Shown in pieces: positions 20,382 to 64,000 of a stretch of 64,000 bases of DNA. The stretch comes from Squalus acanthias. Taxonomy: Eukaryota. Numbering within the stretch: the stretch's first letter is position 1; the number at the start of each line of letters is the position of its first letter. Where the stretch lies: the NCBI GenBank assembly GCA_030390025.1, contig CM059431.1, positions 110,982,001-111,046,000 of the forward strand, written 5' to 3'. Both the position numbers and the translations under genes were made by a program. The notes under the pieces were generated by a model. The model did not search any database. It was given only the letters and a program-made list of their open reading frames with translations, and was not told where the DNA came from.

Positions 20382-20483
20382 ATTCTCTTTGCCAGAAAAG
20401 TAATGAGGGACAGCAACTAAAGTAGCAACAAAGTTAGGATGAATAGGCAAAACTACCTCACAAAGCGTTGAGTCAATGTAGAA

Positions 20484-38344: not shown

Positions 38345-41300
38345 ACCAGTCAACAATACACCTGTCAGTCACCATTAAACCTGTCAGTCACCAGGACAGC
38401 TGTCAGTCACCAATTCACGTCTCAGTTACCAATTCACCTGTCAGTCAGCATTAAACCTGTCAGTTACCAATTCTTCTTTCAGTCACCAGTAGACCTGTCA
38501 GTTACCAAATCACCTGTCAGTCACCAATACACCCATCAGTCATCAATACAAGTGTCAGTAACCAACACACCTGTCAGTCAGCAGGACAGCTGTCAGTCAT
38601 CAATACACCTGTCAGTCACCAGTACACCTGTCAGTCCCCAACACAACTGTCAGTCACCAGGACACCTGTCAGTCACCAGGACACCTGTCAGTCACCAATA
38701 CACCTGTCAGTCCCCAATACACCTGTCAGTCACCAGTACACCTGACAGTCACCAGGACACCTGTCAGTCATCAGGACACCTGTCAGTCACCAGAACACCT
38801 GTCAGTCCCCAATACATCTGTCAGTCCCCAACACACCTGTCAGTCACCAGGACACCTGTCAGTCAGCAGCACAGCTGTCAGTCACCAGAACACCTGTCAG
38901 TCCCCAACACACCTGTCAGTCACCAGGACACCTGTCAGTCACCAGGACACCTGTCAGTCACCAGGACATCAGTCAGTCACCAATATACCAGTCAGTCCGC
39001 AAAACACCTGTCAGTCACCAGAACACCTGTCAGTCACCAGTACACCTGACAGTCACCAGGACACCTGTCAGTCACCAGGACACCTGTCAGTCACCAGTAC
39101 ACCTGTCAGTCACCAATACATCTGTCAGTCACAAATGCACCTGTCAGTGACCAGTTCAACTGTCAGTCAACAGTACACCTTTCAGTCACCAATTCACCTG
39201 TCAGTTACCAAAACACCTGTTAGTCACCAATTCACCTGTCAGTTACCAAAACACCTGTCAGTCACCAATACACCTGTCAGTCACCAGAACACCTGTCAGT
39301 CCCCAACATACCTGTCAGTCACCAGAACACCTGTCAGTCACCAGTACACCTGTCAGTCACCAATACACCTGTCAGTCCCCAACACTCCTGTCAGTCACCA
39401 GTACACCTGTCAGTCAGCAATACACCTGTCAGTCACCAATACATCTGTCAGTCACCAGGACACCTGTCAGTCTACAGGACACCTGTCAGTCACCATTACA
39501 CCTGTCAGTCACCATTACACCTGTCAGTCACCAGTTCACCTGTCAGTATCCAGCACAACTTTCGGTCACCAACTCACCTGTCAGCCACCAGGTCACCTGT
39601 CAGTCACCAATTCACCTGCGAGTCACCAGTACACCTGTCAGTCCCCAACACTCCTGTCAGTCACCAGAACACCTGTCAGTCACCAGTATACCTGACAGTC
39701 ACCAGGACACCTGTCAGTCACCAGTACACCTGTCAGTCAGCAATACACCTGTCAGTCACCAATTCACCTGTGAGTCACCAGGACACCTGTCAGTCACCAA
39801 AACACCTGTCAGTCACCAATACACCTGTCCGTCACCAATTCACCTGTCCGTCAACAATTCACCTGTCCGTCACCAGTTAACCTGTCAGTCACCAGTACAC
39901 CTGTCAGTCATCAGGAGACCTGTTAGTCACCATTACAGCTGACAGTCACCAGTACACCTGTCAGTCACCAGTCAAACTTTCAGTCACCAATTCACCTGTC
40001 AGTCACCAGGACACCTGTCAGTCACCAGTACACCTGTCAGTCATCAGGACACCTGTCAGTCACCAGTACACCTCTAAGTCAGCAGTGCACCTGTCTGTCA
40101 CCAGGACACCTGTCAGTCACCAGGACACCTGTCAGTCACCAGTACACATTTCAGTCACAAATACACCTGTCTGTCAACAATTCACCTGTCAGTCACCAGG
40201 ACACCTGTCAATCACCAATACACCTGTCAGTCACAAGGACACTTATCAGTCACCGGTACACCTGTCAGTCACCGGTACACCTGTCAGTCACCAATACACC
40301 TGTCAGTCACAAGGACACTTATCAGTCACCGGTACACCTGTCAGTCACCAATACACCTGTCAGTCACCAATACACCTGTCAATCACCAGAACACCTGTCA
40401 GTCACCAGTACACCTGACAGTCACCAGGACACCTGTCAGTCACCAGGACACCTGTCAGTCACCAATATACCAGTAAGTCACCAGGACACCTGTAAGTCAT
40501 CAATACAACTATCAGTCACCAGTACACCTGTCAGCAACAATTATAACTGTCAGACAGCAGGGCAACTGGCTGTCACCAATACACCTGTCAGTCACCAATA
40601 CACCTGTCAGTCACCAATACACCTGTCAATCACCAGGACACCTGTCAGTCACCAATGCATCTGTCAGTCACCGGTACACCTGTCAGTCACCAGTACACCT
40701 TTCAGTCACCAATTAACCTGTCAGTCACCAGTGCACCTGTCAGTCATCAGGACAACTGTCAGTCACAAGTACACCTGTCAGTCACCAATACCCCTGTCAC
40801 TTAGCAACATACCTGTCAGTCACCTGTCCACCTGTCAGTCATCAGACACCTGTCAGTCATCATTACGGCTGCAATAACCAGGACACCTGTCAGTCAGCAA
40901 TGCACCTGTCAGTCACAAATGCACCTGTCAGTCACCAGTACCCCTATCAGTCACCAATTCACCTGTCAGTCACCAGGACAGCTGTCAGTCACCAAAACAC
41001 CTGCCAATCACCAGTACACCTGTCAGTCATCAGGACACCTGTCAGTCACCAGTACACCTGTCAGTCACCTATAACCCTGTCAGTCACCAGTACACCTCTA
41101 AGTCAGCAGTGCACCTGTCTGTCACCAGGACACCTGTCAGTCATCATTACGGCTGCAATAACCAGGACACCTGTCAGTCATAAATGCACCTGTCAGTCAC
41201 AAATGCACCTGTCAGCCACCAGGACAGCTGTCAGTCACCAAAACACCTGCCAATCACCAGTACATCTGTCAATCAACAGTACACCTGTCAGTCACCATGA

Positions 41301-44300
41301 CACCTGTCAGTCACCGATTCACCTGTCAGTCACCAGTAGACCTGTTATTCATCAGGACACCTGTCAGTCATGAGTACCCCTGTCAGTCACCAATGCACCT
41401 GTCAATCACCAGTACACCTGTCAGTTATCAGGACACCTGTCTGTCACCAGTGCACAAGTCGCTCACCTATACCCCTGTCAGTCACCAGTACACCTTTCAG
41501 TCACCAATGCAGCTGTCAGTCACCAATTGACCTGTCAGTCGCCAGTACACCTGTCAGTGACCAGTACACTTGTCAATCACCAGGACACCTGTCAGTCATA
41601 AATACACCTGTCTGTCACCAGGTCATCTGTCCGTCACCAGTACACCTTTCAGTCAACAATTCTCCTGTCAGTCATCAGGACACCGGTCTGTCACCAATAC
41701 ACCTGTCCGTCAACAATTCACCTGTCCGTCACCAGTTAACCTGTCAGTCACCAGTACACCTGTCAGTCATCAGGAGACCTGTCAGTCACCATTACAGCTG
41801 ACAGTCACCAGTACACCTCTCAGTCACCAATTCACCTGTCAGTCATCAGGACACCTGTCAATCACCAATACACCTGTCAGTCACAAGTTCACCTGTCAGT
41901 CGCCAATACAGCTGTCCTTCACCAGGAGACTGGTCTGTCACCAGTAAGCCTGTCTGTCACCAATACACCTGTCAGTCACCAGTACACCTTTCAGTCAACA
42001 ATTCACCTGTCAGTCACCAGGACACCTGTCAATCACCAGTACACCTGTCAGTCATCAGTGAACCTGTCAGTCATCAGGACACCTGTCAGTCACCAGGACA
42101 CCTGTCAGTTATCATTACAGATGTCAGTCACCAGTATACTTGTCATTCACCAATGCACCTGTCTGTCACAAATTCAACTGTCAGTCACCAGTACACTTGT
42201 CAGTCACATTTACACCTGTCAGTCACCAGTACTCCTGTCAGTCATCAATACACCTGTCAATCACCAGCACACCTGCCAGTCACCAATTCACCGGTCAGTC
42301 ACAAATGCACCTGTCAGTCACCAGTACACCTGTCAGTCACCGGTAAAAGTTTCAGTCACCAATTCACCTGTCAGTCACCAGGACACCTGTCAGTCACCAG
42401 TACATCTGTCAGTCATCAGGACACCTGTCAGTCACCTATAACCCTGTCAGTCACCAGTACACCTGTCAGTCACCAATACACCTTTTAGTCACCAGTACAC
42501 CTCTAAGTCATCAATGCACCTGTCAGACACCAATTCACCTGTCTGTCACCAGGGCACCTGTCAGTCACCAATACACCTTTTAGTCACCAGTACACCTCTA
42601 AGTCAACAATTCACCTGTCACTCACCAGGACACCCGTCAGTCACCAATACACCTGTCAGTCACAAGGACACTTGTCAGTCACCGGTACACCTGTCAGTCA
42701 CCAATACACCTGTCAGTCACAAATGCACCTGTCAGTCACCAGTACACTTGTCAGTCACATTTACACCTGTCAGACACCAGTACTCCTATCAGTCATCAAT
42801 ACACCTATCAATTGACCAGCACACCTGTCATTCAAAAATGCACCGGTCAGTCACAAATGCACCTGTCAATCACCAGTACACCTGTCAGTCACCAGTCAAA
42901 CTTTCAGTCACCAATTCACCTGTCAGTCACCAGGACACCTGTCAGTCACCAGTACACCTGTCAGTCATCAGGACACCTGTCAGTCACCAGTACACCTCTA
43001 AGTCAGCAGTGCACCTGTCTGTCACCAGGACACCTGTCAGTCACCAGTACACATTTCAGTCACAAATACACCTGTCTGTCAACAATTCACCTGTCAGTCA
43101 CCAGGACACCTGTCAATCACCAATACACCTGTCAGTCACAAGGACACTTATCAGTCACCGGTACACCTGTCAGTCACCAATACACCTGTCAGTCACAAGG
43201 ACACTTATCAGTCACCGGTACACCTGTCAGTCACCAATACACCTGTCAGTCACCAATACACCTGTCAATCACCAGGACACCTGTCAGTCACCAATGCATC
43301 TGTCAGTCACCGTACACCTGTCAGTCACCAGTACACCTTTCAGTCACCAATTAACCTGTCAGTCACCAGTGCACCTGTCAGTCATCAGGACAACTGTCAG
43401 TCACAAGTACACCTGTCAGTCACCAATACCCCTGTCACTTAGCAACATACCTGTCAGTCACCTGTCCACCTGTCAGTCATCAGACACCTGTCAGTCATCA
43501 TTACGGCTGCAATAACCAGGACACCTGTCAGTCAGCAATGCACCTGTCAGTCACAAATGCACCTGTCAGTCACCAGTACCCCTATCAGTCACCAATTCAC
43601 CTGTCAGTCACCAGGACAGCTGTCAGTCACCAAAACACCTGCCAATCACCAGTACACCTGTCAGTCATCAGGACACCTGTCAGTCACCAGTACACCTGTC
43701 AGTCACCTATAACCCTGTCAGTCACCAGTACACCTCTAAGTCAGCAGTGCACCTGTCTGTCACCAGGACACCTGTCAGTCATCATTACGGCTGCAATAAC
43801 CAGGACACCTGTCAGTCATAAATGCACCTGTCAGTCACAAATGCACCTGTCAGCCACCAGGACAGCTGTCAGTCACCAAAACACCTGCCAATCACCAGTA
43901 CATCTGTCAATCAACAGTACACCTGTCAGTCACCATGACACCTGTCAGTCACCGATTCACCTGTCAGTCACCAGTAGACCTGTTATTCATCAGGACACCT
44001 GTCAGTCATGAGTACCCCTGTCAGTCACCAATGCACCTGTCAATCACCAGTGCACCTGTCAGTTATCAGGACACCTGTCTGTCACCAGTGCACAATTCGC
44101 TCACCTATACCCCTGTCAGTCACCAGTACACCTTTCAGTCACCAATGCAGCTGTCAGTCACCAATTGACCTGTCAGTCGCCAGTACACCTGTCAGTGACC
44201 AGTACACTTGTCAATCACCAGGACACCTGTCAGTCATAAATACACCTGTCTGTCACCAGGTCATCTGTCAGTCACCAGTACACCTTTCAGTCAACAATTC

Positions 44301-47300
44301 TCCTGTCAGTCATCAGGACACCGGTCTGTCACCAATACACCTGTACGTCAACAATTTACCTGTCCGTCACCAGTTAACCTGTCAGTCACCAGTACACCTG
44401 TCAGTCATCAGGAGACCTGTCAGTCACCATTACAGCTGACAGTCACCAGTACACCTCTCAGTCACCAATTCACCTGTCAGTCATCAGGACACCTGTCAAT
44501 CACCAATACACCTGTCAGTCACAAGTTCACCTGTCAGTCGCCAATACAGCTGTCCTTCACCAGGAGACTGGTCTGTCACCAGTAAGCCTGTCTGTCACCA
44601 ATACACCTGTCAGTCACCAGTACACCTTTCAGTCAACAATTCACCTGTCAGTCACCAGGACACCTGTCAATCACCAGTACACTTGTCAGTCAGCAATTCA
44701 CCTGTCAGTCATCAGTGAACCTGTCAGTCACCAGGACACCTGTCAATCACCAGTACACCTGTCAGTCATCAGTGAACCTGTCAGTCATCAGGACACCTGT
44801 CAGTCACCAGGACACCTGTCAGTTATCATTACAGATGTCAGTCACCAGTATACTTGTCATTCACCAATGCACCTGTCTGTCACAAATTCAACTGTCAGTC
44901 ACCAGTACACTTGTCAGTCACATTTACACCTGTCAGTCACCAGTACTCCTGTCAGTCATCAATACACCTGTCAATCACCAGCACACCTGCCAGTCACCAA
45001 TTCACCGGTCAGTCACAAATGCACCTGTCAGTCACCAGTACACCTGTCAGTCACCGGTAAAAGTTTCAGTCACCAATTCACCTGTCAGTCACCAGGACAC
45101 CTGTCAGTCACCAGTACATCTGTCAGTCATCAGGACACCTGTCAGTCACCTATAACCCTGTCAGTCACCAGTACACCTGTCAGTCACCAATACACCTTTT
45201 AGTCACCAGTACACCTCTAAGTCATCAATGCACCTGTCAGACACCAATTCACCTGTCTGTCACCAGGGCACCTGTCAGTCACCAATACACCTTTTAGTCA
45301 CCAGTACACCTCTAAGTCAACAATTCACCTGTCACTCACCAGGACACCTGTCAATAACCAATACACCGGTCAGTCACAAGGACACTTGTCAGTCACCAAT
45401 ACACCTGTCAGTCACAAATGCACCTGTCAGTCACCAGTACACTTGTCAGTCACATTTACACCTGTCAGACACCAGTACTCCTATCAGTCATCAATACACC
45501 TATCAATTGACCAGCACACCTGTCATTCAAAAATGCACCGGTCAGTCACAAATGCACCTGTCAATCACCAGTACACCTGTCAGTCACCAGTCAAACTTTC
45601 AGTCACCAATTCACCTGTCAGTCACCAGGACACCTGTCAGTCACCAGTACACCTGTCAGTCATCAGGACACCTGTCAGTCACCAGTACACCTCTAAGTCA
45701 GCAGTGCACCTGTCTGTCACCAGGACACCTGTCAGTCACCAGTACACCTGTCTGTCAACAATTCACCAGTCAGTCACCAGGACACCTGTCAATCACCAAT
45801 ACACCTGTCAGTCACAAGGACACTTATCAGTCACCGGTACACCTGTCAGTCACCAATACACCTGTCAGTCACAAGGACACTTATCAGTCACCGGTACACC
45901 TGTCAGTCACCAATACACCTGTCAGTCACCAATACACCTGTCAATCACCAGGACACATGTCAGTCACCAATGCATCTGTCAGTCACCGGTACACCTGTCA
46001 GTCACCAGTACACCTTTCAGTCACCAATTAACCTGTCAGTCACCAGGACAGCTGTCAGTCACCAAAACACCTGCCAATCACCAGTACACCTGTCAGTCAT
46101 CAGGACACCTGTCAGTCACCAGTACACCTGTCAGTCACCTATAACCCTGTCAGTCACCAGTACACCTCTAAGTCAGCAGTGCACCTGTCTGTCACCAGGA
46201 CACCTGTCAGTCATCATTACGGCTGCAATAACCAGGACACCTGTCAGTCATAAATGCACCTGTCAGCCACCAGGACAGCTGTCAGTCACCAAAACACCTG
46301 CCAATCACCAGTACATCTGTCAATCAACAGTACACCTGTCAGTCACCATGACACCTGTCAGTCACCGATTCACCTGTCAGTCACCAGTAGACCTGTTATT
46401 CATCAGGACACCTGTCAGTCATGAGTACCCCTGTCAGTCACCAATGCACCTGTCAATCACCAGTGCACCTGTCAGTTATCAGGACACCTGTCTGTCACCA
46501 GTGCACAAGTCGCTCACCTATACCCCTGTCAGTCACCAGTACACCTTTCAGTCACCAATGCAGCTGTCAGTCACCAATTGACCTGTCAGTCGCCAGTACA
46601 CCTGTCAGTGACCAGTACACTTGTCAATCACCAGGACACCTGTCAGTCATAAATACACCTGTCTGTCACCAGGTCATCTGTCAGTCACCAGTACACCTTT
46701 CAGTCAACAATTCTCCTGTCAGTCATCAGGACACCGGTCTGTCACCAGTACACCTGTCTGTCACGAGGACATATGTCTGTCACCAATTCACCTGACAGTC
46801 ACCAGTAGACCTGACATTCATCAGGACACCTGTCAGTCACCAGTGCACCTTTCAGTCAACAATTCAGCTGTCAGTCACCAGGGCACCTGTCAGTCACCAG
46901 TACACCTCTCAGTCACCAATTCACCTGTCAGTCATCAGGACACCTGTCAATCACCAATACACCTGTCAGTCACAAGTTCACCTGTCAGTCGCCAATACAG
47001 CTGTCCTTCACCAGGACACCGGTCTGTCACTAGTACACCTGTCTGTCACGAGGACATATGTCTGTCACCAATTCACCTGACAGTCACCAGTAGACCTGAC
47101 ATTCATCAGGACACCTGTCAGTCACCAGTACACCTGTCAGTCACCAGTACACCTGTCAGTCACCAATTCACCTGTCAGTCACCAGGACACCTGTCAATCA
47201 CCAGTACACCTGTCAGTCAGCAATTCACCTGTCAGTCATCAGGACACCTGTCAATAACCAATACACCTGTCAGTCTCCAGTTCACCTGCCAGTCAGCAGT

Positions 47301-47375
47301 GAACCTGTCAGTCATCAGGACACCTGTCAGTCACCAGGACACCTGTCAGTTATCATTACAGATGTCAGTCACCAG
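38345..47375 (+). repeat. 19-bp satellite array (consensus CACCTGTCAGTCACCA[G/A][T/G]A) with a higher-order repeat
   Basis: Hundreds of 19-nt units; variant blocks recur at offsets of 2638, 2714 and 2413 bp. Confidence 0.98.
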
Positions 47376-49030
47376 TGTAAAATTCGCAATTATCGCGATT
47401 CGAAATAACGAGATAAAGCAGATTCGTTTCATCAGTTTTATTTCAACGAAATGCTGTCATGATTAAACAGGACACAGAAGCCTGTAAAATGGCTGCCGCG
47501 CCTCGTGGCAGAAGCTTCCAGAATTTTCAGTTGGCAGACAAAATGGCGTTCGAATAAACATTTCAGTATAAGATTGGTTAATACGCAGCAAATACTGATA
47601 AATACAGGATGCAACCTGTCTGCATTCGACACAATAGCGAGAGATATAAGTGCTGGAATCATTTTCCATGCACAAGTAAGGACCATTGTACTGGGCAATC
47701 GAAGGCCCATCCAGATACATCAATACGCAAATTCCCCACGGCTCTACAATGAGAGAGCCATTTTCGGGTGATTAAGTCAGTATTCGAGGAGGCCCCAAAA
47801 CCAGTCAGGGAGACTCCTAGCCGGTTCGACAATGGGGAAAACATTAACGGATAGTTGGCCAGTTTAAGGTGCTACCGAAACCCATTACAAACAAGAATCA
47901 CCCCATACTGGGAATTCTGAGCGCCAAGATTTTACAAAGGATGAACATTAAGATTGGGCGGGAGATAAGGGAACACAGCACTATAACTATAGTGAACAAA
48001 CGTCCATCGCGCTCTTATTCCTCTGATCCTCCCGGGGCTGATTCGTTTGAACTGACTCTGGACGCGGGCTGAACTTTTATTCTCCTATGTTGGGTGGAGC
48101 TCAATTTGGAGCGAGCCGCCTCAACGAAGGCCAGTGACCGGGTGCACCATCCCGAGGGTCGGTAAACGGTGTTCTGGACCCGAAGGCCCGACGAGACGAG
48201 ATGAGAAGAGAAGAAGAAGAATCCACGTGCCACCGCGGTCAGTAAACCCCGACCGCGCCCGTAAATATAAAGACCATTTTTGAACTCTATCAGGTTGCTG
48301 CCGAACCAGTGGAAGACTCTCTTTCGAATTCTATCGACAACCGGTGTCAATACAGGAAGACTCTTCTTTGAATTTTTCCGGCTAACTGGTGTCGGTCCAG
48401 AAAGACTTCTCTTTGAGTTCTACAGCCGGGCCCGAGCACTGTCGAGTTCTTCATGACAACGGGGAGCCCAGCCTGCTTGTCGCAGCAGCGAAGATAAACA
48501 AGTGGGGTACAGAGACCCCTTCCAACACGTGACAGTCAGGTGTTGCAGCGAAACAAGCCGAGTGCCTCGTTTAAAATTCTCCGAAGTATCACGAGTGGTG
48601 AGCATGTTTCCCGATCCTACAAATCTAGATTAGTGTAGGTATTGATAGGGGAGGGTAGTTTTATTAAGGATAAATATAATGTGTTCCCCTTTTTACGATG
48701 TGCCGTGCGTTCCTCATTACCCCAGACCAAGTTTTATGAATGTATGTATACTTGTACTGTCATTAATTTGTGCCTATGACATGTACTTCATGATTTTGGA
48801 TGCTATGCAATAAAGATTTCCATTTCGTACTATTCAACCGAGTCTATTTGAGTTTTTCTCTGCATTACTGCTCTCACACCTAAGTCCAGTGTTAGAACCG
48901 TAAGGGCGAGTGGGTCGAACCACTCACAGGTGCTTATTGCAACAAGGCTGGCCGGAGACCAGAGAAAGCAATAGTATTAGGCAACGAAGGCCTAACCCCG
49001 CACAAGCACCCTGAACCAAAACCCCTTACA
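47376..49030 (+). mobile_element. Solo LTR, 1655 bp, inserted in the satellite
   Basis: TGTAA...TTACA termini and 4-bp TSD CCAG (47372-47375 / 49031-49034). The empty site is visible in paralogous units (~42121, ~44835). TATAAA at 48266 and AATAAA at 48809. Confidence 0.9.
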
Positions 49031-49459
49031 CCAGTACACTTGTCATTCACCAATGCACCTGTCAGTCACCAGTACACTTGTCAGTCACATTTACACCTGT
49101 CAGTCACCAGTACTCCTGTCAGTCATCAATACACCGGTCAGTCACAAATGCACCTGTCAGTCACCAGTACACCTGTCAGTCACCAGTAAAAGCTTCAGTC
49201 ACCAGTACATCTGTCAGTCATCAGGACACCTGTCAGTCACCAGTACACCTGTCAGTCACCTATAAACCTGTCAGTCACCAGTACACCTGTCAGTCACCAG
49301 TACACCTGTCAGACACCAATTCACCTGTCTGTCACCAGGGCACCTGTCAGTCACCAATACACCTTTTAGTCACCAGTACACCTCTAAGTCATCAATGCAC
49401 CTGTCAGTCACCAGGACACCTGTCAGTCACCAGTACACCTTTCAGTCACCGATACACCT
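49031..49459 (+). repeat. 19-bp satellite
   Basis: Same unit as 38345-47375. Confidence 0.97.
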
Positions 49460-50726
49460 TGTAGGCTTCACAAAATCCCCCAGAAACTCGAACAGAGCCC
49501 TAAAAGGGAGTGATTTTTGGACCTTTCATACAAACTTGGGAGGATGGGACCTAAGTGAAGTGATTTGATGTAAAAACCCCAGTTTTTGACATTTTAAAGA
49601 TCAGGGAAGAAAAACCCTGAGGAAAATGACTTTTGAATCTTACTGTTGGGAGAGACACCTTTCACAGATACAAGACAGGCTGCGGAGGGGCGTGGCCAGG
49701 CAGTGGACAGCTTTGGGTATTGGGGCCCAATCAAGCTGTCTGGGAATTGTTTGCACTGCAATCCTACCAAGGAGGAAGAGACAAACCCAAAGCCTCACAC
49801 ACACATCGAAATATGAATAATCCAAGACCCCCTTTTGAAATTCCCAGGCCCAAACAGGATACCAGAAGCCTGAAATCAATAAAACATTTAGTACTTCATC
49901 AAAAGCCAATCAACCAGGTATCCACAGGACAGATTTAAAAGCCCGCCAAAAGCCCTAGGACAATAGGGTTGAGATTTGGCGTGTAAATAAGGCTGTGTTT
50001 AAATCGGAAAACGATCAGGACATGTTTAACACTGAGCTAAAGCTATCGGAACTGGCAAGCCCGCCAAAACTAGACAATGGACTAAGCAAGGTTCATTTGC
50101 AACCTAAAGGAATCCGTTTTAGTAAGGGGTTTTTGGGCGCGAAAAAAGGATAGTATAATTGAAAGCCTGTCCCAAAAACTTTTTCTCTTTTTTGGACTCG
50201 CTGACAACGCCGGTACAGCTCTCCCCCTGCTCAAGCAAAACCACTACAAGCCACGACGAGGAAGGCCAGCAAACAGACCAACACACAAGAAGAAACCAGA
50301 GCGACTGCCTCAGTGACCATCGGACACCTCGCAGCAACAAGGGCCTTACAAAATCTTTCAATCAAAAGACTCTAAAATCCTGTCAAGGATTCGTTGGTGA
50401 GCATTATCCCTGATCTCCTGAAACCAAAAACCTAGCTAGATAGTGGGATCTTTGGGAGGGATAAGGTTTTTCTTTGGTATATTGTCAGTCTCCCTCGCCT
50501 GTACCGTGTGCTCCCCAATCTGTGTTTAAGTATTAAGTGTGTTTTAAGTTTGTTACCTTTTTCTTTTCATAAAGTAAAATTTATTTCATCAGAACCTGTT
50601 GTCTACTGCAATTTTGTTCACAACCCATAAATAAGTCCAAAGTCTAGGAACCAGAGGAGTGTGGGAGCGATTCGAACCGCTCACTGAGTCAGAAAGTGAA
50701 GGCTGACCCCATTACCACCCCCTACA
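49460..50726 (+). mobile_element. Solo LTR, 1267 bp, inserted in the satellite
   Basis: TGTAGG...CCTACA termini and 5-bp TSD CACCT (49455-49459 / 50727-50731). Shares short motifs with 47376-49030 in the same orientation. Confidence 0.88.
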
Positions 50727-51493
50727 CACCTGTCAGTCAACAATTCACCTGTCAGTCACCAGGACACCTGACAATCACCAATAAACCTGTCAGTCACAAG
50801 GACACCTGTCAGTCACCAATACACCTGTCAGTCACCAATACACCTGTCAATCACCAGGACACCTGTCAGTCACCAATGCATCTGTCAATCACCAGTACAC
50901 CTGTCAGTCACCAGTACACCTTTCAGTCACCAATTCACCTGTCAGTCACCAGTACATCTGTTAGTCACCAGGACAACTGTCAGTCACAAGTACACCTGTC
51001 AGTCACCAATACCCCTGTCAGTTAGCAACATACCTGTCAGTCACCTGTCCACCTGTCAGTCATCAGGACACCTGTCAGTCATCATTATGGCTGCAATTAC
51101 CAGGGCACCTGTCAGTCACCAATGCACCTGTCAGTCACAAATGCACCTGTCAGTCACCAGTACAACTGTCAGTCACCAGTATCCCTATCAATCACCAATT
51201 CATCTGTCAGTCACCAGGACAGCTGTCAGTCACCAAAACACCTGCCAATCACCAGTACATCTGTCAATCAACAGTACACCTGTCAGTCACCATGACACCA
51301 ACAGTCACCGATTCACCTGTCAGTCACCAGTAGACCTGTCAGTCATCAGGACACCTGTCAGTCATGAGTACCCCTGTCAATCACGAATGCACCTGTCAAT
51401 CACTAGTACACCTGTCAGTTATCAGGACACCTGTCAGTCACCAGTGCACCAGTCGCTCACCTATACCCCTGTCAGTCACCAGTACACCTTTCA
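50727..51493 (+). repeat. 19-bp satellite
   Basis: Same unit as 38345-47375. Confidence 0.97.
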
Positions 51494-54400
51494 TAGAAAC
51501 ATAGAAGATAGGAGCAGGAGTAGGCCATTCGGCCCCTCGAGCCTGCTCCGCCATTCGATGAGATCATGGCTGATCATCCAAACTCAGTACCCTGTACCTG
51601 CCTTCTCCCCATATCCCTTGATAGCTTTAGCTTTAAGAAATATCTCTAACTCATTCTTGAATATATTTAATGACTTGGCCTCAACTACCTTCTGTGGTAG
51701 AGAATTCCACAGGTTCACCACTCTCTGGGTGAAGAAATTCCTCCTCATTTCTGTCCTAAATGGCTTACCCCCTATCCTTAGATTATGACCCCTGGTTCTG
51801 GACTCTCTGACCATCGGGAACATTCTTCCTGCATCTAGTTTGTCCAGACCTGTCAGAATTTTATGTTTCGATGAGATCCCCTCTCATTCTTCTATACTCC
51901 AGCGAGTATAAGCCCAATCGACCCAATCTCTCCTCATATGTCATTCCTGCCATCCCAGGTATCAGTCTTGTGAATCTTCGCTGAACTCCCTCCATGGCAA
52001 GAACATCCTTCCTCAGATAAGGCGACCAAAACTGCACACAATACTCAAGGTGTGGTCTCACCAAGGCCCTGTACAACTGCAGCAGGACATCCCTGTTCCT
52101 ATACTCAAACCCTTTCGCTATGAAGGCCAACATACCATTTGCCTTCTTCACCGCCTGCTGCACCTGCATGCTTACCTTCAGCGACTGGTGCACAAGGACA
52201 CCCAGGTCTCGTTGCACTTCCCCTTCTCCCAATCTATTGCCATTCAGATAATAGTCTGCCTTTCTGTTTTTGACACCAAAGTGGATAACCTCGCATTTAT
52301 CCACGTTATATTGCATCTGCCACGCTTCTGCCCACTCACCCAACCTGTCCAAATCATCCTGGAGTTTCTCAGTATCCTCCTCGCAGCACACACTCCCACC
52401 CAGCTTTGTGTCATCTGCAAACTTGGAGATATTACATTTAGTTCCCTTATCTAGATCATTAATGTATATTGTGAATAGCTGGGGTCCAAGGACCGATCCC
52501 TGCGGTACCCCACTAGTCACTGCTTGCCACTCGGAAAAAGATCCATTAATTCCTACTCTTTGCTTTCTGTCCGCCAACCAGTTCTCTATCCAAGTCAATA
52601 CCTTGCCCCCAATCCCATGTGCCTTAAATTTACACGCTAATCTCTTGTGCGGGACCTTATCGAAAGCCTTTTGAAAGTCCAAATACACTACATCTACTGG
52701 TTCTCCCTTATCTATTTTCCCAGTTACATCCTCAAAAAATTCCAGTAGATTAGTCAAGCACGATTTACCTTTTGTAAATCCATGTTGACTTTGTCCGATC
52801 CTGTCACTGTTTTTCAAGTGCTCAGCTATTACATCCTTTATAATGGACTCTAGCATTTTCCCCACTACCGATGTCAGGCTTACCGGTCTGTAATTCCCCG
52901 CTTTCTCTCTACCACCCTTTTTGAATAGTGGGGCAACATTAGCTACCCTCCAATCCATGGGTACAGTTCCAGATTCCATCAAATGTTGGAAGATGATCAG
53001 CAATGCATCTACTATTTCTAGGGCCACTTCCTTAAGTACCCTAGGATGTAGATTATCAGGCCCTGGGGATTTATCGGCCTTCAATCCCGTCAATTTCCCT
53101 AACACCATTTCCCTACAAATACTGATTTCATTCAGTTCCTCCCTCTCATTAGACCCTATGTTCCCCGACATCTCTGGGAGGTTATTTGTGTCCTCCTTTG
53201 TGAAGACAGAACCAAAGTATGTATTTAATTGGTCAGCCATTTCTTTGTTCCCCATTATAACTTCCCCCGCTTCTGACTGCAAGGGACCTACACTTGATTT
53301 CACCAATCTTTTTCTCTTCACATATCTATAAAAGCTCTTACAGTCAGTTTTTATGTTCCCTGCAAGCTTACTTTCATATTCTATTTCCCCCCTCTTAATT
53401 AATCCTTTTGTCCACCTTTGCTGAATCCTAAACTGCTCCCAATCCTCAGGTTTGCTGCTTTTCCTGGCCAATTTATATGTCCTCTCCTTGGATCTTATGC
53501 TAGCCCTAAATTCCCTTGTTAGCCACGGTTGAGTCACCCTTTTTGTTTTATTCTTATGCCACACTGGGATGAACAAATTTTGTAGTTCATCCATGCAGTC
53601 TTTAAATGTTTGCCATTGCCTATCCACCGTCAACCCTTTGAGTGACATTCCCCAATCAATCCTACCCAATTCGCACCTCATACCATCGTAGTTTCCTTTA
53701 TTTAAATTCAGGACCCTAGTCTCTGATTCAACTACTTCACTCTCCATCCTAATGAAGAATTCTATCATATTATGATCACTCTGACCCAAGGGGCCTCGTA
53801 CAACAAGATTGCTAATTAATCCTTTCTCGTTACATAATACCCAGTCTAAGATGGCCTGATCTCTGGTTGGTTCCTCGACATATTGTTCCAGAAAACCATC
53901 CCGTAAACATTCTAGGAATTCCTCCTCTACAGTATTTTTACTAATTTGGTTAGCCCAATTTATATGTAAATTAAAGTCACCCATGATGACTGCTGTGCCC
54001 TTACTGCATGCTTCTCTAATTTCCCTTTTAATGCCATCCCCAACCTCCGTATTACCGTTTGGAGGTCTATATACCACTCCCACTAACGTTTTCTGCCCCT
54101 TGTTATTTCTCAGTTCTACCCATACAGATTCCGCATCATCAGAGCTAATATCCTTCCTTTCAATTGTGTTAATCCCCTCTTTAACCAGCAATGCTACCCC
54201 ACCTCCCTTTCTTTTTTGCCTATCTTTCCTGAATATTGAATACCCCTGGATGTTGAGTTCCCAGCCTTGGCCACCCTGGAGCCATGTTTCTGTAATCCCA
54301 ATCAAATCGTATTCATTTACCTCTATTTGCGCAGCTAATTCATCCACCTTGTTCCGAATGCTCCTTGCATTAAGACACAAAGGGGTAAAAATTCACTTGG

Positions 54401-54904
54401 TTGCGCCTCCCGTTAGCGCCTTAAGAGGGCGCTAATGGGGCGTTAAGCCGCTAACGCCCGGGCGCAGCGCTGTTTGCGCCGCTCGAGAACTTAACTTGAG
54501 ATTGTGCGGCAGCGCTAAAACTTACCGCTGCGACCACCTGCGCGCGCAGATTGTGACGTCATTCCATGGTGCAACGCCCTTGGGGCGCCCCGGAGCGGAA
54601 ATTGAGTGGCGCCCCCTGCCTTACCGCCTGGCGCTTCCAACGACCGGAAGACTGGAACGTTATCAATCGGTGTGGGGCTGGGGGGGGGCGCTATTTAAAG
54701 GGGGCCTCTTCCTGTTTTTTTCTGTGGTCGACATTTATGCACCACTCGTTCTGAGAGAGAGAGAGAGAGATTCGGAGAGAGAGAGAGAGAGAGAGAGAGA
54801 CTTCTACATTGACTCAACGCTTTGTGAGGTAGTTTTGCCTAGTTCATCCTAACTTTGTTGCTACTTTAGTTGCTGTACCTCATTACTTTTCTGGCAAAGA
54901 GAAT

Positions 54905-56052
54905 ATGGGGGCTGCAATGATTGGGGGCGTCGTCCTGCTCCAGCTGAATCGGAGGATACTGAGACGCAGACAGAGAGTGGCAATGATGGCCAGACGGAGG
55001 AGGGCCATCAGGCGCATGTACAGGAGAGCTTACCCTCCCAGGGTATATCGTGAACAGCTCTCCTACATCCATATGTCCGAGGAGCTGTGTTTGCGAAGGC
55101 TGCGATTCAGCAAGGAGGTGGTCACTGAGCTCTGCCACCTGCTGCAGCCAGATCTGCAGCCTCAGCTGAGGTCCAGGACGTCTCTGTCGGTGGCAGTGAA
55201 GGTCACAGTGGCTTTGAACTTCTACGCCACTGGCTCATTCCAAGCTGCTGTTGGGGACCTCGCCAATATCTCCCAGTTTGCGGTGCATCGCTGCATCCGG
55301 CAGGTCACCAATGCCCTCTTCAGAAGGAGACGAGACTTCATCTCTTTCCCTATGACCCCAGACAAGCAGCGTGACCGTGCTCTGGGCTTTGCGAGGGTAG
55401 CGGGCTTCCCCATGGTGCAGGGCGCCATTGACTGCACGCATGTGGCTTTGCGTGCTCCGCGAGAGAATGCAGAGGAATTCAGGAACAGAAAGGGGTTCCA
55501 TTCCTTGAATGTGCAGTTGGTCTGTGACCACAGACAGGTGATACTCGCTGTCAATGCCCACTATCCGGGCAGCTGCCACGATGCTTTCATCCTGCGCCAA
55601 ACTACTGTGGCAGAAGTTTTCGAGGCACCGCATCAGCCAGTTGGTTGGCTTCTGGGGGACAAGGGGTACGCATTGAGCACCTGGCTGATGACACCGCTCC
55701 GTACGCTGAGCTGCGGTACAATGAAAGCCATCAAGCAACCAGGAACATTATTGAGCGCACAATCGGCGTGCTGAAACAACGGTTCCGCTGTCTGGACCAT
55801 TCCGGAGGAGCCCTGCAGTACTCGCCTGAGCAAGTTTCGAACTTCGTAGTCGTGTGCTGCATGTTGCACAACATGGCAATCCTCAGGACCCAGCCAATGC
55901 CACCAGGCCTTGTAGCACCACCAGAGGAGGAGGAGGAAGAGGAGGAAGAGGACGAGGACGATGATCATCAGCAGCACCAAGGCAGGAGGGCGGCCCACAA
56001 TGGTCAAACTGCAAGGGCCGTCCGTCAACGACTAATAGCAAGCCGCTTCTAG
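54905..56052 (+). pseudogene. Harbinger transposase, frameshifted
   Basis: A 13-bp deletion (ccaaacacccctg) at ~55705 relative to copy 1 separates the catalytic Glu segment from the rest. Confidence 0.92.
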
Positions 56053-56346
56053 GGCCCCTGCCATTGCTACAAACACTAATCAACCCAGCACGCAACCCCT
56101 AAGCCGGCCAAGGCACCAATAATTCCAACCACCAGCCATGTATATTTTGAATACAGAAACTTATTTATTTTACAAACTCTGTGTGTGTCAATTCCTCATG
56201 ACAAACTCATAGAAATAAACACAAAAAAACAGTCAATAACATAACTGGTTCTCACAACCTGGAGATAATGTCCAAAACACTAAACAAAAGTTGGACCATG
56301 AACCTCGGCCTTTAATAAAAAAATGACCAGCATTTTGGCACACCTC

Positions 56347-58169
56347 CTACTTTTTGCCCTTCGAGGGTGATCTCCTTCCCTTGCGCACTTCCCCCCTTCC
56401 AACCCTACTGCTCCTCCGTAATGGGACCTCAGTGGCTGCAGCAAGGCTGGTGGAAGGCTGCTGCTCGTCAGACCCTGACACTGCAGATGCCCCTGAAGGA
56501 CGGCCTCGACCACTTCTGGGCCTGGAGGGCCCGGCTGCAGACTGCACCAACTCTGCATGGGCGGCAGCAGTCTGTCCTACAGGCGGTGGCAAGTGCAGTG
56601 GAGAAGTGACAGTGTTGGCAGCAGGAATGCTGTCATCGTGAGAGAGGACAGCAACTCCCTGCTCGCCCGACACACTGGCACTCCCACGGGGCAGCACTTC
56701 AGCATCCGGAGCAATTTGCCGGAGAACAGATTGCTGGCCTGCTGCGGCGCGGTGACAGCCCCGGGGACATGTGCACGAACCATCGAGGATGGCAGCAGTC
56801 AGTGCTCGCGTGGCCTCAATCTGAGTCTGCATGAGAGCAGTCTCAGATGGGTTCCTGGCAGCCAGTGACTGAATTGCAGCACTAAGCTTTAGTGTGGCAT
56901 CCGCCTGTGCTACAGCGAAGTGCTCCACACTCCTTGCCAGTGATTCAATGCATTCGGGCACCCTTCCCACTGCACCCATGAGCTCAGTGTGCATGCCCAC
57001 CGCCTGGCTGTTCATTTCTGCAATCAGCCGCTCCTCCTCTGCGTCCATTGCAGTAGGAGTGTCTGGCATACTCTCCCTCTGGGGAGAAGGCCCCCGTTCT
57101 TCCCTACCCCCCCCATGGCGTTGCTGCAGCCCGCTGGGTCCTGGAGCTTCACCATCATCAGCCCCTTCCCCCCTGCTCCCCTCCGGGGAAGGCGTGTTCC
57201 CAGTGTGGGCATGGGCTTCCTCGGGAGAGGGTGGCACTGATGCTCCGGCTTCCTCTTCCTCCTCAGCTGCAGCATCACTCCCAGTGGCAGCTTCAGGGCC
57301 CGTCTCCTCAGCTGGTGAATCACCATCTGAAAGCAGGGAGGTACAAGAGTGGCTTTAGCGTGAGGACAGGGTGGCAGTAAGGGAGGAATAAGTGCAGCGA
57401 GTTAGCAAGTTGGATTGAAAGTGTCAAAGGCTGGTATTGTGAGGGACAAGTGGAAGGACTGAGGACAAAAAGGTGATGACCTTACCATTGCTGTCCACAA
57501 CGGGGTCGGCATCTCCAGTGGCGACGGGACCGATCACCCGGCTTGCCACAATCCTGTGGACGCGCTCCTCCAGATCGCTGAGGGGTTGCAGCTGAAGCCG
57601 CCCTCCACCCGTCCGTTGCTGCTGTCTCCGATTATGAGCCAGCTTAGCCTGCAAGAAAAAGGACAGCATCTGAGTAAATATACAGCCATGGTCTTGCCTG
57701 ATGTGCCTCCCATAGGTGAATAGCCCTTACTGTATGCAGCCATGGTCTTGCCTGATGTGCCTCCCATAGGTGAATAGCCCTTACTGTATGCAAAGTGTAG
57801 AATGTGTGTGTGTGTTTGATGAAAGGGCCATAGGTGTTGGATGAGTGTTGTGCATTGGGGTTTTAAGACCCTCTGGCCATAGAGTGAGTTTGAGATGGAG
57901 GGATGGAGAGGTATTGAGAAAAAGCCACTCACCCTGACGACCCGAGTGAGGTCGTTGAACTTTTTGCGGCATTGAACATGGGTCCTGGGCACCATGCTCC
58001 TGGAGGAGACGCTCTGAGCCACCTCCCTCCACACTCTTCTGAACTCGCGTGGCAAAGGCCTCCTGCCACTCTCCGGGAACAGCATGCATCGTCTGCGCTC
58101 CACTGCGTCAACCAGAGCATCCAAGGCCCGCTCGGTGAAGCGATGAGCGCGTTCTCTCACCCTCTCCAT
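56347..58169 (-). CDS. Harbinger Myb/SANT DNA-binding protein, 3 exons (58169-57933, 57648-57486, 57326-56347), 459 aa predicted
   Basis: AGG|GTGAGT, TTGCAG|GCT, ATG|GTAAGG and TTTCAG|AT junctions give 237+163+980 = 1380 nt with no internal stop. RFTERALDALV..W..RTHVQCRKKFNDL Myb motif and a basic C-terminus. Confidence 0.85.
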
Positions 58170-58713
58170 GCTTGGCAGCAAAATGGATTACAGGTCTCTC
58201 CAGGCTGAGATTCAAGGCTGCAATGAGCAGGGTGTGGCTGGGGAGCAAGTGGCCCCCCCCGCTTTAAGAAGTGGCCGGCGCCAGTGTGTCTGTGTTCCCT
58301 CGCTAACTGGCAGCAGCTGCGCTGCGCTCGTGCGCTGAGTTAGCGCCTCACTCCTTGGCCTTTGCGCCTTAAGAGAGGTGTGCAGCGCCTAATTTAGCGC
58401 TCCACTCACCTCCCGGGGCGGTAAAAGTGAAGTTTCCTGTCAGTGCCGATAATTAGCGCCAGGCGCTAATATTTGCGTCCGGACGATATTTGCGCCCCAA
58501 ATGGGGCGCGACCTAATTTCTACCCCAAAGCCTTCAGGCTTGTTTTTTTAACGCTCTCAGACCTATATGAATTATTATTTACTGTGACCATGTTTGATTT
58601 AAACCGTTGAGTTCTTTGCCTTCTACTTTTGTTTTTCTCCTTCCTGTCTTTTGCTTTTATCCTTGTTTCCCTTTCCTCTGTCTCCCTGCTCAGGTTCCCA
58701 ACCCCCTGCCACT

Positions 58714-59664
58714 TTAGTTTAAACCCTCCCCAACAGCACTAGCAAACACTCCCCCTAGGACATCGGTCCCGGCCCTGCCCAGGTGCAGACCGTTCCATTT
58801 GTACTGGTCCCACCTCCCCCAGAACTGGTTCCAATGTCCAAGGAATTTGAATCCCTCCCCCTTGCACCATTCCTCCAGCCACGTATTCATTTGAAATATC
58901 CTCCTATTTCTACTCTGACTAGCACGTGGCACTGGTAGCAATCCTGAGATTACTACCTTTGAGGTCCTATTTTTTAATTTACCTCCTAACTCCCTATATT
59001 CTGCTTTTAGGACCTCATCCCATTTTTTACCTATATCGTTGATGCCTATGTGCACCACAACAACTGGCTGTTTGCCCTCCCCCTCCAGAATGTTCTGTAG
59101 CCGCTCTGAGACGTCCTTGACCCTTGCACCAGGGAGGCAACACACCATCCTGGAGTCTCGTTGGCGGCCGCAGAAACGCCTATCTATTCCCCTTACAATT
59201 GAATCCCTTATCACTATAGCTCTTCCACACTTTTTCCTCCCAGCCTGTACAGCAGAGCCACCCATGGTGCCAGGAAGTTGGCTGCTGCTGCCTTCCCCTG
59301 ATAAGTCATCCCCCCCAACAGCATCCAAAGTGGTATATCTGTTTGAGAGGGGGATGGCCACAGGGGACCCCTGCACTACCTGCCTGCACCTCTTACTCTG
59401 CCTGGTGGTCACCCATTCACTTCCTGCCTGTACACCCTTTACCTACGGTATGACCAGCTCTCTAAACGTGCTATCCACGACGTCCTCAGCGTCGCGAATG
59501 CTCCAATATGCATCCATCCGCAGCTCCAGCGCCACAATGCGGTCCATCAGTAGCTGCAGCTGGATACACTTCCCACACACATGGTCGTCAGGGACACAGG
59601 AAGCGTCCGTGATTTCCCACATATAGCAGGAGGAGCATATCACAGGGCGGAGCTCTCCTGCCAT
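58714..59664 (-). pseudogene. CR1 ORF1 (zinc finger + SGNH esterase), single in-frame TAG at 59445-59443
   Basis: ORFs 59443-59664 and 58714-59412 are in the same frame; total 951 nt, the same length as 248-1198. Confidence 0.92.
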
Positions 59665-60000
59665 GACTTACCCTTTAATTAACTAATTAAAATTAAATTA
59701 AATGAATCCCACCAATTTCACTTCAATTAAATGATATACTCAAGGGCCCTTGTTTAACAGCAGTCCCCACTACACCACAGAGACTCTAAAAACTATAAAC
59801 CACAGAATTTAAGTATGGAAAAAGGAGAAAGAGAGAAATACTCACCAACCAATCACTTACCTGCTTTCTGGTGACGTCACACTTCGATTACTTTTTACTT
59901 CTGTCTCCCGCTCTGAGATTGGTAAACCTACCTGCTCCCAGGGCTCGTTTTTATCCTCTGCCGCCGTCGCCGCTCCTCCTAGGTCTGCACCGCCGCTGCT

Positions 60001-63000
60001 GTCACCAATACAGCTGTCAGTCACCAATTGACCAGTCAGTCACCAGTACACCTGTCAGTGACCAGTTCACTTTTCAATCACCAGGACACCTGTCAGTTAT
60101 AAATACACCTGTCTGTCACCAGGTCATCTGTCAGTCATCAGTACACCTTTCAGTCAACAATTCTCCTGTCAGTCACCAGGGCACCTGTCAGTCACCAGTA
60201 CACCTGTCAGTCATCAGGACACCTGTCAGTCACCAATTCACCTGCTAGTCACCAGGGCACCTGTCAGTCACCAATACAGCTGTCAGTCACCAGTAAAAGT
60301 TTCAGTCACCTATTCACCTGTCAGTCACCTATTCACCTGTCAGTCACCAGGACACCTGTCAGTCACCAGTACACCTGTCAGTCATCAGGACACCTGTCAG
60401 TCACCAGTACACCTGTCAGTCACCTATACCAATGTCAGACACCAGTACACCTGACAGTCACCGATAACCCTGTCAGTCACCAGTACACCTGTCAGTCACC
60501 AATTCACCTGCTAGTCACCAGGGCACCTGTCAGTCACCAATACAGCTGTCATTCACCAGTACAACTTTCAGTCACCAATACAATTGTCAGTCACCAGGAC
60601 ACATGTCAGTCACCAATACACCTTTCAGTCACCAATACACCTGTCAGTCAACGATTCACCTGTCAGTCACCAGGACACCTGTCAGTCAAAATTCAACTGT
60701 CAGACACCAATTCACCTGTCAGTCACCAGTGCACCTGTCACTCACCTATACCCCTGTCAGTCACCAGTACACAATTCAGTCACCAATATACCTGTCAGTC
60801 ACCAGTACACCTCTGAGTTATCAGGACAACTGTCTCTCACCAGTGAACCTGCCAGTCACCAATATTCCCATCAGTCACCAGTACACCTGTCAGTCATAAA
60901 TACACCGGTCAGTCACCAGGACACCTGTCAGTCACCAGGACACCTGTCTGTCAACAGTAGACCTGTCAGTCACCAGTACCCCTGTCAGTCACCAGTACAC
61001 CTGTCGATCACCAATACACCGGTCAGTCAACAATTCACCTGTCAGTCACCAATACACCTGTCAGTCACCAGTACACCTGTCGATCACCAATACACCAGTC
61101 AGTCAACAATTCACCTGTCAGTCACCAATACACCTGTCAGTCACCAATACACCTGTCAGTCATCAATTCACTTGTCAGTCACCAGTACACCTGTCAGTCA
61201 ACAGTACACCTGTCAGTCACCAGTACACCTGTCAGTCAACAGTACACCTGTCAGTCATCAGTACACCTGTCAGTCACCAGGACACTTGTCAGTCACTGGT
61301 ACGCCTGTCAGTCTTCAATTCATCTGTCAGTCACCAGGACACCTGTCAGTCATAAATACTCCTGTCAGTCACCAGGATACCTGTCTTTCACCAGTACACC
61401 TGTCAGTCATCAATAAACCTGTCAGTAACCAGGACACCTGTCATTCATCAATACACCTATCAATCAGAGGACACCTGTCAGTCACCAATGCACTTGTCAG
61501 TCACAAATGCACCTGTCAGTCACCAGTCCACCTGTCAGTTACCATTACACCTTTCAGTCACCAATTTACCTGTCAGTCACCAGTCCACCTGTCAGTCATC
61601 AGGACACCTGCCAGTCATCATTACAGCTGCAATAACCAGGACACCTGTCACTCACCAATGCACCTGTCAGTCACAACTGCACCTGTCAGTGACCCGTACA
61701 CCTGTCATTCACCAATACACCTATCAAGCAGAGGACACCTGTCAGTCACCAATGCACCTGTCAGTCACATATGCACCTGTCAGTCAGAAATGCACGTATC
61801 AGTCACCAATTCACCTGTCAGTCACCAGTACACCTGTCAGTCATCAGGACAACTGTCACTCAGCATCTTACCTGTCAGTCACCAGTCCACCTGTCAGTCA
61901 CCAGTACACCTGTCAGTCACCAGTCCACCTGTCAGTCATCAGGACACCTGTCAGTCATCATTACAGCTGCAATAACCAGGACACCTGTCAGTCAGCAATG
62001 CACCTGTCAGTTACAAATGCACCAACAGTCACCAGTACACTTGTCAGTCACCAGTGCAACTACCAGTCACCAATTCACCTGTAAGTCAACAGGACGCCTG
62101 TCAGTCACCAATACACCTGCCAATCACCAGTACATCTGTCACTCAACAGTATACCTGTCAGTCACCATGACACCTGTCAATCAACAGTACACCTGTAAGT
62201 CACCAGGACACCTGTCAGTCACCAGTACACCTGTCAGTCATCAATTCACCTGTCAGTCATCAATTCACCTGTCAGTCATCAATTCACCTGTCAGTCACCA
62301 GGACACCTGTCAGTCACCAGGACACCTGTCAGTCATAATTACACCTGTCAGTTACCAGGACACCTGTCATTCACCAATACACCTGTCAAACAGAGGACAC
62401 CTGTCAGTCACCAATGCACCTGTCAGTCACATATGCACCTGTCAGTCACCAGTACACCTGTCAGTCACCATTACACCTTTCAGTCACCAATTCACCTGTC
62501 AGTCACCAGTACACCTGTCAGTTATCAGGACAACTGTCAGTCACAAGTACACCTGTCCGTCACCAATACCCCTGTCACTCAACAACTTACCTCTCAGTCA
62601 ACAGTCCACCTGCCAGTCATCAGGACACCTGTCACTCATCATTACAGCTGCAATAACCAGGACACCTGTCAGTCACCAATACACCTGCCAATCACCAGTA
62701 CATCTGTTAATCAACAGTACAACGATCAGTCACCATGACACCTGTCAATCAACAGTACACCTGTAAGTCACCAGGACACCTGTCAGTCACCGATTCACCT
62801 GACCATCACCAGTAGACCTGTCATTCATCAGGACACCTGTCAGTCACCAGTACCCCTGTTAGTCACCAGAACACCTGTCAATCACGAGTACACTATTCAC
62901 TTATCAGGACACCTGTCTGTCACCAGTGCACCTGTCGCTCACCTTTACCCGTTTCAGTCACCAGTACACCTTTCAGTCACCAATACACCTGTCAGTCACC

Positions 63001-64000
63001 AGGACACCTGTCAGTCACGAGTACACCGGTCTGTCACGAGTACACCTGTCACTCATCAGTACACTTGTCACTCACCAGTACACCTTTCAGTCAACAATTC
63101 TCCTGTTAGTCACCACGACCCCTGTCACTCAGCAGTACACCTGTCAATCACCAATACACCTTTCAGTCACCAATACACCTGACAGTCACCAATACACCTG
63201 TCAGTCACCAGGACACCTGTCAGTCACCAGGACAATTGTCTGTCGCCAGTACACCGGTCTGTCACGAGGACCCCTGTCTGTCACCAATACACCTGTCAGT
63301 CACCAGGACACCTGTCAGTCACCAGGACAATTGTCTGTTGCCAGTACACCGGTCTGTCACGAGGACCCCTGTCTGTCACCAATACACCTGTCCATCACCG
63401 GGACACCTGTCAGTCACTGGGACACCTGTCAGTCACCAGTACACCTGTCCGTCATCAATAAACCGGTCAGTAACCAGGACATTGTCAGTCACCAATACAC
63501 CTGTCAGTCATCAGGACAACTGTCAGTCACAAGTACACCCGTCAGTCACCAATACCCCTGTCAATCATCAACTTACCGAAAGTCACCAGTCCACTTGTCA
63601 GTCATCAGGACACCTATCAGTCATCATTACAGCTGCAATAACCAGGACACCTGCCAGTCACCAATGCACCTGTCAGTCACAAATGCACCTGTCAGTCACC
63701 AGTACACCTGTCAGTCACCAGTACAACTTTCAGTCACCAATACACCTGCCATTCACCAGTACATCTGTCAATCAACAGTAAACCTGTCAGTCACCAGGAC
63801 ACCTGTGAGTCACCAATTCACCTGACAGTCTCCAGTAAACCTGTCAGTCACTGGGACACCTGTCAGTCACCAGTACACCTGTCAGTCACCAGTACACCTG
63901 TCAGTCATCAGGACACCTATCAGTCATCATTACAGCTGCAATAACCAGGACACCTGTCAGTCAGCAATGCACCTGTCAGTCACAAATGCACCTGTCAATC
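60001..64000 (+). repeat. 19-bp satellite, more diverged, runs off the window end
   Basis: Same unit as 38345-47375 with more substitutions. Confidence 0.97.

Follow-up and report, generated by a model that had tools for sequence, protein, structure and literature searches.

How two-ORF LINEs translate their second open reading frame (ORF2) is described as an open and important question in PMC3894237. The question is raised here by a CR1 element on the minus strand of the window, i.e. the whole 64-kb, repeat-rich stretch of Squalus acanthias DNA that we analyzed, in which ORF1 ends at a stop codon abutting a slippery heptamer, while APE, the endonuclease, and RT, the reverse transcriptase, are encoded in the −1 frame relative to ORF1. 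CR1-group elements are given as 22–34% of shark and ray genomes (excerpt of PMC13343379) and 11.8% of the chicken genome (excerpt of PMC11835228). Keyword look-ups in the CR1 literature, including excerpts of PMC13343379, PMC11835228, and PMC4120745, returned no account of CR1 ORF2 translation. Frameshifting is not mentioned in the excerpt of PMC13343379, a CR1 frameshift is not described in those of PMC3905857, PMC5006619, PMC1925062, PMC4255032, and PMC6609765, and CR1 is not mentioned in that of the frameshifting review PMC5009743. Full-text literature searches likewise found no report of a CR1 frameshift; the original CR1 papers on chicken and turtle, as well as the Repbase reports, lay outside their scope and may mention the overlap. 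Here, our comparisons reveal that the CR1 ORF1/ORF2 junction holds a deeply conserved translational signal, with a −1 slip as the likely answer to how CR1-type LINEs produce their copying enzyme.

Architecture of the CR1 elements and their ORF1/ORF2 junctions

Three elements in the window, which we take to be CR1 from the first-pass annotation, the ORF1 type, and motifs of the group, retain the ORF1/ORF2 junction. ORF1 of element 2 (58714–59664, minus strand) encodes zinc-finger-like CxxC pairs, a coiled coil, and an SGNH esterase (PF13472, E 7e-12), carries a premature TAG at 59445–59443, and terminates in ...GEGLN*. Its ORF2 body (51861–54378, minus strand) lies in the −1 frame relative to ORF1 and matches PF03372, PF14529, PF00078, and L1 ORF2p, with APE preceding RT; the TAA that ends it at 51863–51861 looks premature. 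An ORF1 that combines a zinc finger and a coiled coil with an SGNH esterase, and an ORF2 in which RT follows APE, are the features of vertebrate CR1 elements with an esterase ORF1 (type IVB). The nearest named relatives of the window's LINE ORF1 are from sharks and rays (Pristiophorus, Mustelus, Hemitrygon, and others). In ORF1 alignment A1, the CxxC pairs are present and the terminal Leu-Asn (LN) is invariant. The predicted structure of element-1 ORF1 contains a helix at residues 31–71 and places the terminal GGLN beyond the last helix, in a block with a pLDDT of 58. Similarly, the match to the ZfL2-1 esterase (PDB 4C1B, E 6e-40) ends at the last helix, before the LN terminus.

At the junction of element 2, the minus strand reads GAG GGT TTA AAC TAA, as the first-pass annotation had described, with TTTAAAC at 58723–58717 and the ORF1 stop at 58716–58714. 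The U_UUA_AAC heptamer is in the ORF1 phase and abuts the stop, for which relatives use TAG, TAA, or TGA. An overlapping second heptamer, G_GGU_UUA (58726–58720), which that annotation did not contain, is also in phase and, among the 17 junctions compared below, is common to elements 1 and 2 only. Past the stop, the open −1-frame linker (58713–58527) is rich in Lys, Arg, and Glu and variable in its amino acids. The stop-free stretch of about 65 codons noted earlier was recovered as exactly 65 codons (FKLKWQG...TSLKA) from the heptamer to 58529, and the AUG placed about 42 codons in proved to be the sole in-frame AUG of the linker (58591–58589). The retention of phase, heptamer, and G-rich follower relative to element 1 was also borne out, since both elements carry the same GGT TTA AAC TAA and a G5 run.

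Element 1 displays its junction on the plus strand at 1186–1210 (GGT TTA AAC TAA at 1187–1198), with the overlapping G_GGU_UUA / U_UUA_AAC pair, TAA, and G5 at a 10-nt spacer. Element 3 (27117–28722, minus strand), a more distant and decayed CR1 missing from the first-pass annotation, reads ACT TTA AAC TAG at 27738 (junction 27738–27720); its G run lies 1 nt closer, and its APE lies in the +1 frame, which stays open across all 75 codons. A single 1-nt deletion would account for both the closer G run and the +1 position of the APE. The motif TTTAAACT[AG] occurs five times on the two strands of the window, including at all three of its ORF1 ends. In a single RNA run (X21), no reads matched the window.

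Element 2 is a dead copy and is thus useful as a witness of the family design. Between its linker and its ORF2 body lies a Harbinger-type DNA transposon of 4145 bp (54382–58526; match to PF13359, DDE_Tnp_4), flanked by a target site duplication (TSD) of TTT on the minus strand (AAA on the plus strand) at 58529–58527 and 54381–54379. The expected in-frame run into LCLNARS on removal of the Harbinger and one TSD was reproduced by in silico excision, which yielded 904 open codons in the −1 frame from the heptamer through LCLNARS, APE, and RT, whereas the other two frames contained five and nine stops within the first 72 codons. In addition, contigs of three organisms (runs X1, X6, and X14) part from the window exactly at 58526 and run on into the start of the APE; the Harbinger-free junction exists in nature.

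A second, close Harbinger-type copy is located at ~16930–20895 and, like the copy at 54382–58526, sits in CR1 sequence. The usual Harbinger TSD is TWA, and neither window copy shows it: the copy in element 2 is flanked by the TTT/AAA duplication, and TAT follows the other. A 49-bp unit inside these transposons (57700–57790 and ~17400–17600) is present in two copies in one and four in the other. Tandem copies of a GGTGACTGACAG-type repeat form long arrays at 38267–47400, 49000–51300, and 59990–64000, and one array adjoins element 2 on its 5′ side, at ~59990.

The junction codons are conserved at the nucleotide level

A metagenome scan with the ORF1 alignment, insensitive to the choice among synonymous codons, identified 41 loci, of which 14 span the junction, 26 stop short of it or lack a C-terminal match, and one is a decayed L2-like locus (L031) where the motif is missing. 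Together with the window's three elements, the 14 external junctions form a set of 17. We take 11 of the 14 to be amniote- or bird-like from their resemblance to such elements; the decayed locus L032 was placed in the amniote-type group for the fourfold-site comparison.

TTA AAC is present in 17 of 17 junctions and is preceded by T in 16, so that the 0-frame phase holds U_UUA_AAC 16 times and G_UUA_AAC once, in the canonical X_XXY_YYZ arrangement. In the same ORF1s, TTA encodes only 23 of 181 Leu and AAC 27 of 64 Asn, and T occupies ~27% of fourfold sites, giving TTTAAAC a joint chance of ~0.014 per independent lineage. Identity at fourfold sites is 0.11–0.38 between lineages, 0.48 between element 3 and elements 1–2, and 0.60 between elements 1 and 2, placing synonymous sites between lineages mostly near saturation. 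Given these identities and the relatedness of the 11 amniote-type copies, the set amounts to ~4–5 independent lineages. No single codon is fixed in any of 18 conserved control columns, and the fixation of TTA AAC while such columns vary points to a constraint on the nucleotides. The modeled position of the terminal GGLN outside the fold agrees with a constraint of this kind. Among the stop codons, TAA occurs three times and TGA once, alongside TAG. No variant lies inside 58726–58714 among the 40 of 119 variants listed. In summed contig depth, the bin holding the heptamer ranked first of 30 in run X1 and second in runs X6 and X14; this is a crude indication of conservation.

Beyond these junctions, two protein searches returned 217 ORF1 homologs, 162 of which reach the C-terminus: 107 end in LN, 10 in GN, 3 in KN, and 42 otherwise. 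The named LN-ending homologs include those of rays, sharks, Xenopus, lacertid lizards, and a turtle. The residue preceding LN lacks a U-ending codon in only 2 of 107, a suggestive figure but one confounded by similarly low values at positions −7 and −10. In a search with the GN group (31 proteins), 13 ended in GN and 3 in KN, and several carried FF or FL near the end. Leu, Gly, and Lys are chemically unlike, yet each would permit X_XXA_AAC, as FF and FL would U_UUU_UUN; judged from the protein sequences, the GN and KN termini would imply G_GGA_AAC and A_AAA_AAC heptamers. Other GN-group proteins end in RG, SG, GR, or SR (P0150, P0187, P0245, P0246, and P0247), compatible with no heptamer and suggesting another route to ORF2, such as stop read-through.

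No relatives of the shark-type ORF1 were found in prokaryote genomes, and no relatives were found in viral contigs. A GN-type profile produced 16 weak matches in prokaryote genomes, of which only one of the five inspected (L044) is a LINE junction. This locus, in a bacterial metagenome-assembled genome (L044:2440–3140), is a divergent esterase LINE whose ORF1 has a C-terminal extension and whose ORF2 overlaps ORF1 in the −1 frame by more than 100 nt, without a U_UUA_AAC-stop motif; its presence there is likely host contamination. P0007, a shark-type CR1 ORF1 ending in GLN but listed as an SGNH hydrolase of Pseudomonas aeruginosa, is probably a contaminant.

The −1 frame is open from the heptamer onward

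Among the 13 junctions with a recognizable APE start, 11 have the APE in the −1 frame, and in these the downstream ORF is open from the heptamer through linkers of 33–89 codons. The exceptions, element 3 and L032, are both decayed, and their +1 offsets would be due to 1-nt deletions. Over 561 linker codons, stops in the −1, 0, and +1 frames number 1, 43, and 49, respectively. The depletion of stops upstream of the first AUG, which the first-pass annotation had named as a check, was pronounced: the −1 frame of the 11 junctions contains 0 stops in 300 codons versus 16.3 expected from shuffles, or 1 versus 18.6 with the two offset-frame junctions added. An AUG is found somewhere in 9 of the 11 linkers, at positions from codon 1 to codon 86, while two junctions (L002 and L024) have none ahead of the APE start.

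Frame-breaking linker indels, which had been named as evidence against a selected linker, were absent at 3% of depth or above in three runs. In the linker, the open frame is kept, and none of the 13 linker variants among the 40 of 119 variants listed creates a −1-frame stop, but a constraint on the peptide was not seen, 11 of these 13 being nonsynonymous. In rays, two Hypanus proteins (P0038 and P0231) contain ...GFKL... continuous into the APE, via upstream shifts in the gene models, which shows that the same open frame is present there. A search for longer proteins returned one ORF1–APE read-through model and one unrelated chimera.

A G run lies at a fixed distance from the heptamer

In element 2, a G5 run (58706–58702, minus strand) starts exactly 10 nt past the heptamer, a fixed distance absent from the first-pass annotation. 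G5 at this spacer is present in 13 of 15 junctions, against a background of 7 in 1530, and the run also covers third-codon positions of the −1 frame. Folding for a stimulator of the hairpin or pseudoknot type 5–9 nt downstream gave nothing stable, and a local hairpin was rejected: the 15 followers fold no better than shuffles (z from −1.55 to +1.56, none stable) and share no distal partner, the long-range search having found no partner for the G run at a homologous place in 10 elements. A comparison of the junction with Rfam gave nothing at E ≤ 1. The check for a fold or G-quadruplex after the heptamer, proposed in the first-pass annotation, gave a predicted quadruplex in 4 of 15 followers and a local hairpin in none; as these quadruplexes are only two-tier and confined to the four, a general G-quadruplex was rejected. 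What the junctions do display is one feature of the arterivirus type, a conserved unstructured motif ~10 nt 3′ of the heptamer. Since its distance resembles that of the motif of the arterivirus PRRSV, we favor, by analogy and speculatively, a protein-bound or ribosome-contacting G element, which the adjacent stop might assist.

Frameshifting and its alternatives

Taken together, the heptamer, its phase, the open frame, the fixed G5, and conservation at synonymous positions support, at the level of sequence, a programmed −1 frameshift at U_UUA_AAC that would yield an ORF1–ORF2 fusion in the CR1 lineage, to which we assign a probability of roughly 80%. The frameshift interpretation of the first-pass annotation is thereby strengthened. 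In the proposed mechanism, a fraction of ribosomes would slip by −1 on U_UUA_AAC and produce an ORF1–linker–endonuclease–RT fusion, while the remainder would terminate at the stop and release ORF1p, presumably in a ratio like that of Gag to Gag-Pol; the variable linker of 33–89 codons could serve as a flexible tether. More speculatively, the G5 run, which would lie close to the mRNA entry channel when a ribosome sits on the heptamer, might act as a protein-bound, unstructured stimulator, and slow termination at the adjacent stop perhaps assists the slip. Against the frameshift we count the missing classical stimulator, the 5 of 17 junctions with an AUG beside the stop (in 4 of these it is in frame and 2 nt past the stop), the AUG somewhere in 9 of 11 linkers, the minority UAAUG variant in the family of element 2, the +1 position of the APE in 2 of 13 junctions, the seemingly unconstrained linker peptide, the small number of independent lineages, the 42 of 162 homologs that end otherwise, and the −1 overlap of L044 without the motif.

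The serious rival is termination followed by reinitiation, in which ribosomes would stop and restart nearby in the −1 frame at an AUG or near-cognate codon, either by a SART1-like UAAUG or by the AUG-independent initiation proposed for L1; on this view, the conserved letters would signal termination or reinitiation. Such a restart would account for a frame that is open from the stop onward and for the failure to find a classical frameshift structure, and it has precedents in SART1 (PMC3894237, in part) and L1 (PMC5009743, in part). Moreover, UAGnnAUG is found in L005, L006, L007, and L017, UAAUG in L023, and a minority variant that creates UAAUG occurs in the family of element 2 (three runs put its share of depth at ~10%, 2%, and 40%). 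However, the start is not conserved: 5 of the 17 junctions place an AUG beside the stop and 12 do not, the AUG wanders from codon 1 to codon 86, and two linkers have no AUG at all. Nine of the 17 contain a TURBS-like UGGGA, at positions scattered between −30 and −108, and the other 8 lack it. Reinitiation also leaves unexplained why X_XXY_YYZ is in phase and why distant termini swap LN, GN, and KN. On this balance, we consider it improbable, although reinitiation and frameshifting could coexist as routes in some lineages.

The remaining readings fit worse than either frameshifting or reinitiation. One would place the signal at another level, as a splice acceptor or branch point, a TATA-like internal promoter, or a packaging or dimerization site, with ORF2 made from a separate or processed RNA. 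TTTAAA with a following G run does resemble a TATA/GC arrangement, and many copies read ...AAACTAG|G, but some junctions have lost the AG (TAA in 3 of 17, TGA in 1 of 17), for which reason a splice acceptor was rejected, and no pyrimidine tract is present. The lock of the motif to the ORF1 phase and the openness of the −1 frame upstream of any AUG likewise speak against such signals, making them very improbable. Another would be a constraint on the protein combined with shared descent, the esterase needing its terminal Leu-Asn and the codons being inherited by chance. Although LN is invariant in alignment A1, the synonymous choice is fixed in 17 of 17 junctions while control columns vary, the terminus is modeled outside the fold, and neither G5 nor the stop depletion would follow; this explanation is largely refuted by the synonymous conservation, and we regard it as scarcely tenable.

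If the frameshift is real, the genuine CR1 ORF2p would be an ORF1–ORF2 fusion, ORF2 annotations started at an AUG would be truncated, and engineered CR1 retrotransposition assays would require an intact junction. The G5 element may in turn be a new type of stimulator. A bolder version, which we advance tentatively and hold somewhat doubtful, is that esterase-type CR1s, which dominate among the retrotransposons of sharks, reptiles, and birds, acquired a −1 frameshift of the Gag-Pol kind before sharks and bony vertebrates diverged and have relied on it since. The shift would be driven by G5 at the ribosome entry channel rather than by an RNA fold, and either a host protein that binds G runs or ORF1p itself would read G5. 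If so, the G5-driven shift would define a new stimulator class, and the RT would be tethered to a membrane-binding esterase.

Comparison with known systems

The ORF1/ORF2 layout is that of vertebrate CR1 subgroup 7, whose ORF1 is of type IVB (zinc finger/leucine zipper plus esterase) according to the excerpt of PMC4120745. Other LINEs solve the same bicistronic problem differently. L1 ORF2 is attributed to unconventional initiation in the consulted part of PMC5009743, and SART1 couples its ORFs through UAAUG in that of PMC3894237; as in CR1, a second ORF is expressed from a bicistronic LINE RNA, but there ORF2p is free, and stop-start coupling is seen in only a minority of CR1 junctions.

U_UUA_AAC is among the most shift-prone heptamers on mammalian ribosomes, as stated in PMC5009743, and the viral −1 cassettes treated there (IBV, with U_UUA_AAC itself, and the gag-pol of RSV and L-A) share with CR1 the heptamer class and phase, an upstream RNP protein, a polymerase in the −1 frame, and a stop soon after the site. 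The CR1 junction departs from them in its fixed-distance G5, in the lack of a predicted hairpin or pseudoknot-like stem, and in its host, a non-LTR LINE. A structured stimulator having been sought and not found, we do not class the junction as a canonical −1 cassette. Unlike viral gag-pol, no protease is seen in CR1, and the fusion is predicted to stay intact.

Closer in the position of its downstream element is the arterivirus PRRSV, in which, as set out in the same part of PMC5009743, nsp1beta and PCBP bind CCCANCUCC 11 nt 3′ of the shift site. Both systems possess a short, unstructured, conserved motif at a near-equal distance (that of CR1 starts at the 11th nt), but the CR1 motif is G-rich and that of PRRSV C-rich, making the analogy positional only. 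Among retrotransposons, ORF2 of the Dictyostelium elements TRE5-A and TRE3-A is stated in the excerpt of PMC5911963, which gives neither a heptamer nor a stimulator, to depend on a −1 frameshift; these elements belong to another family and have an unrelated ORF1, and they resemble the CR1 elements described here in being APE-type non-LTR elements for which a −1 frameshift is invoked.
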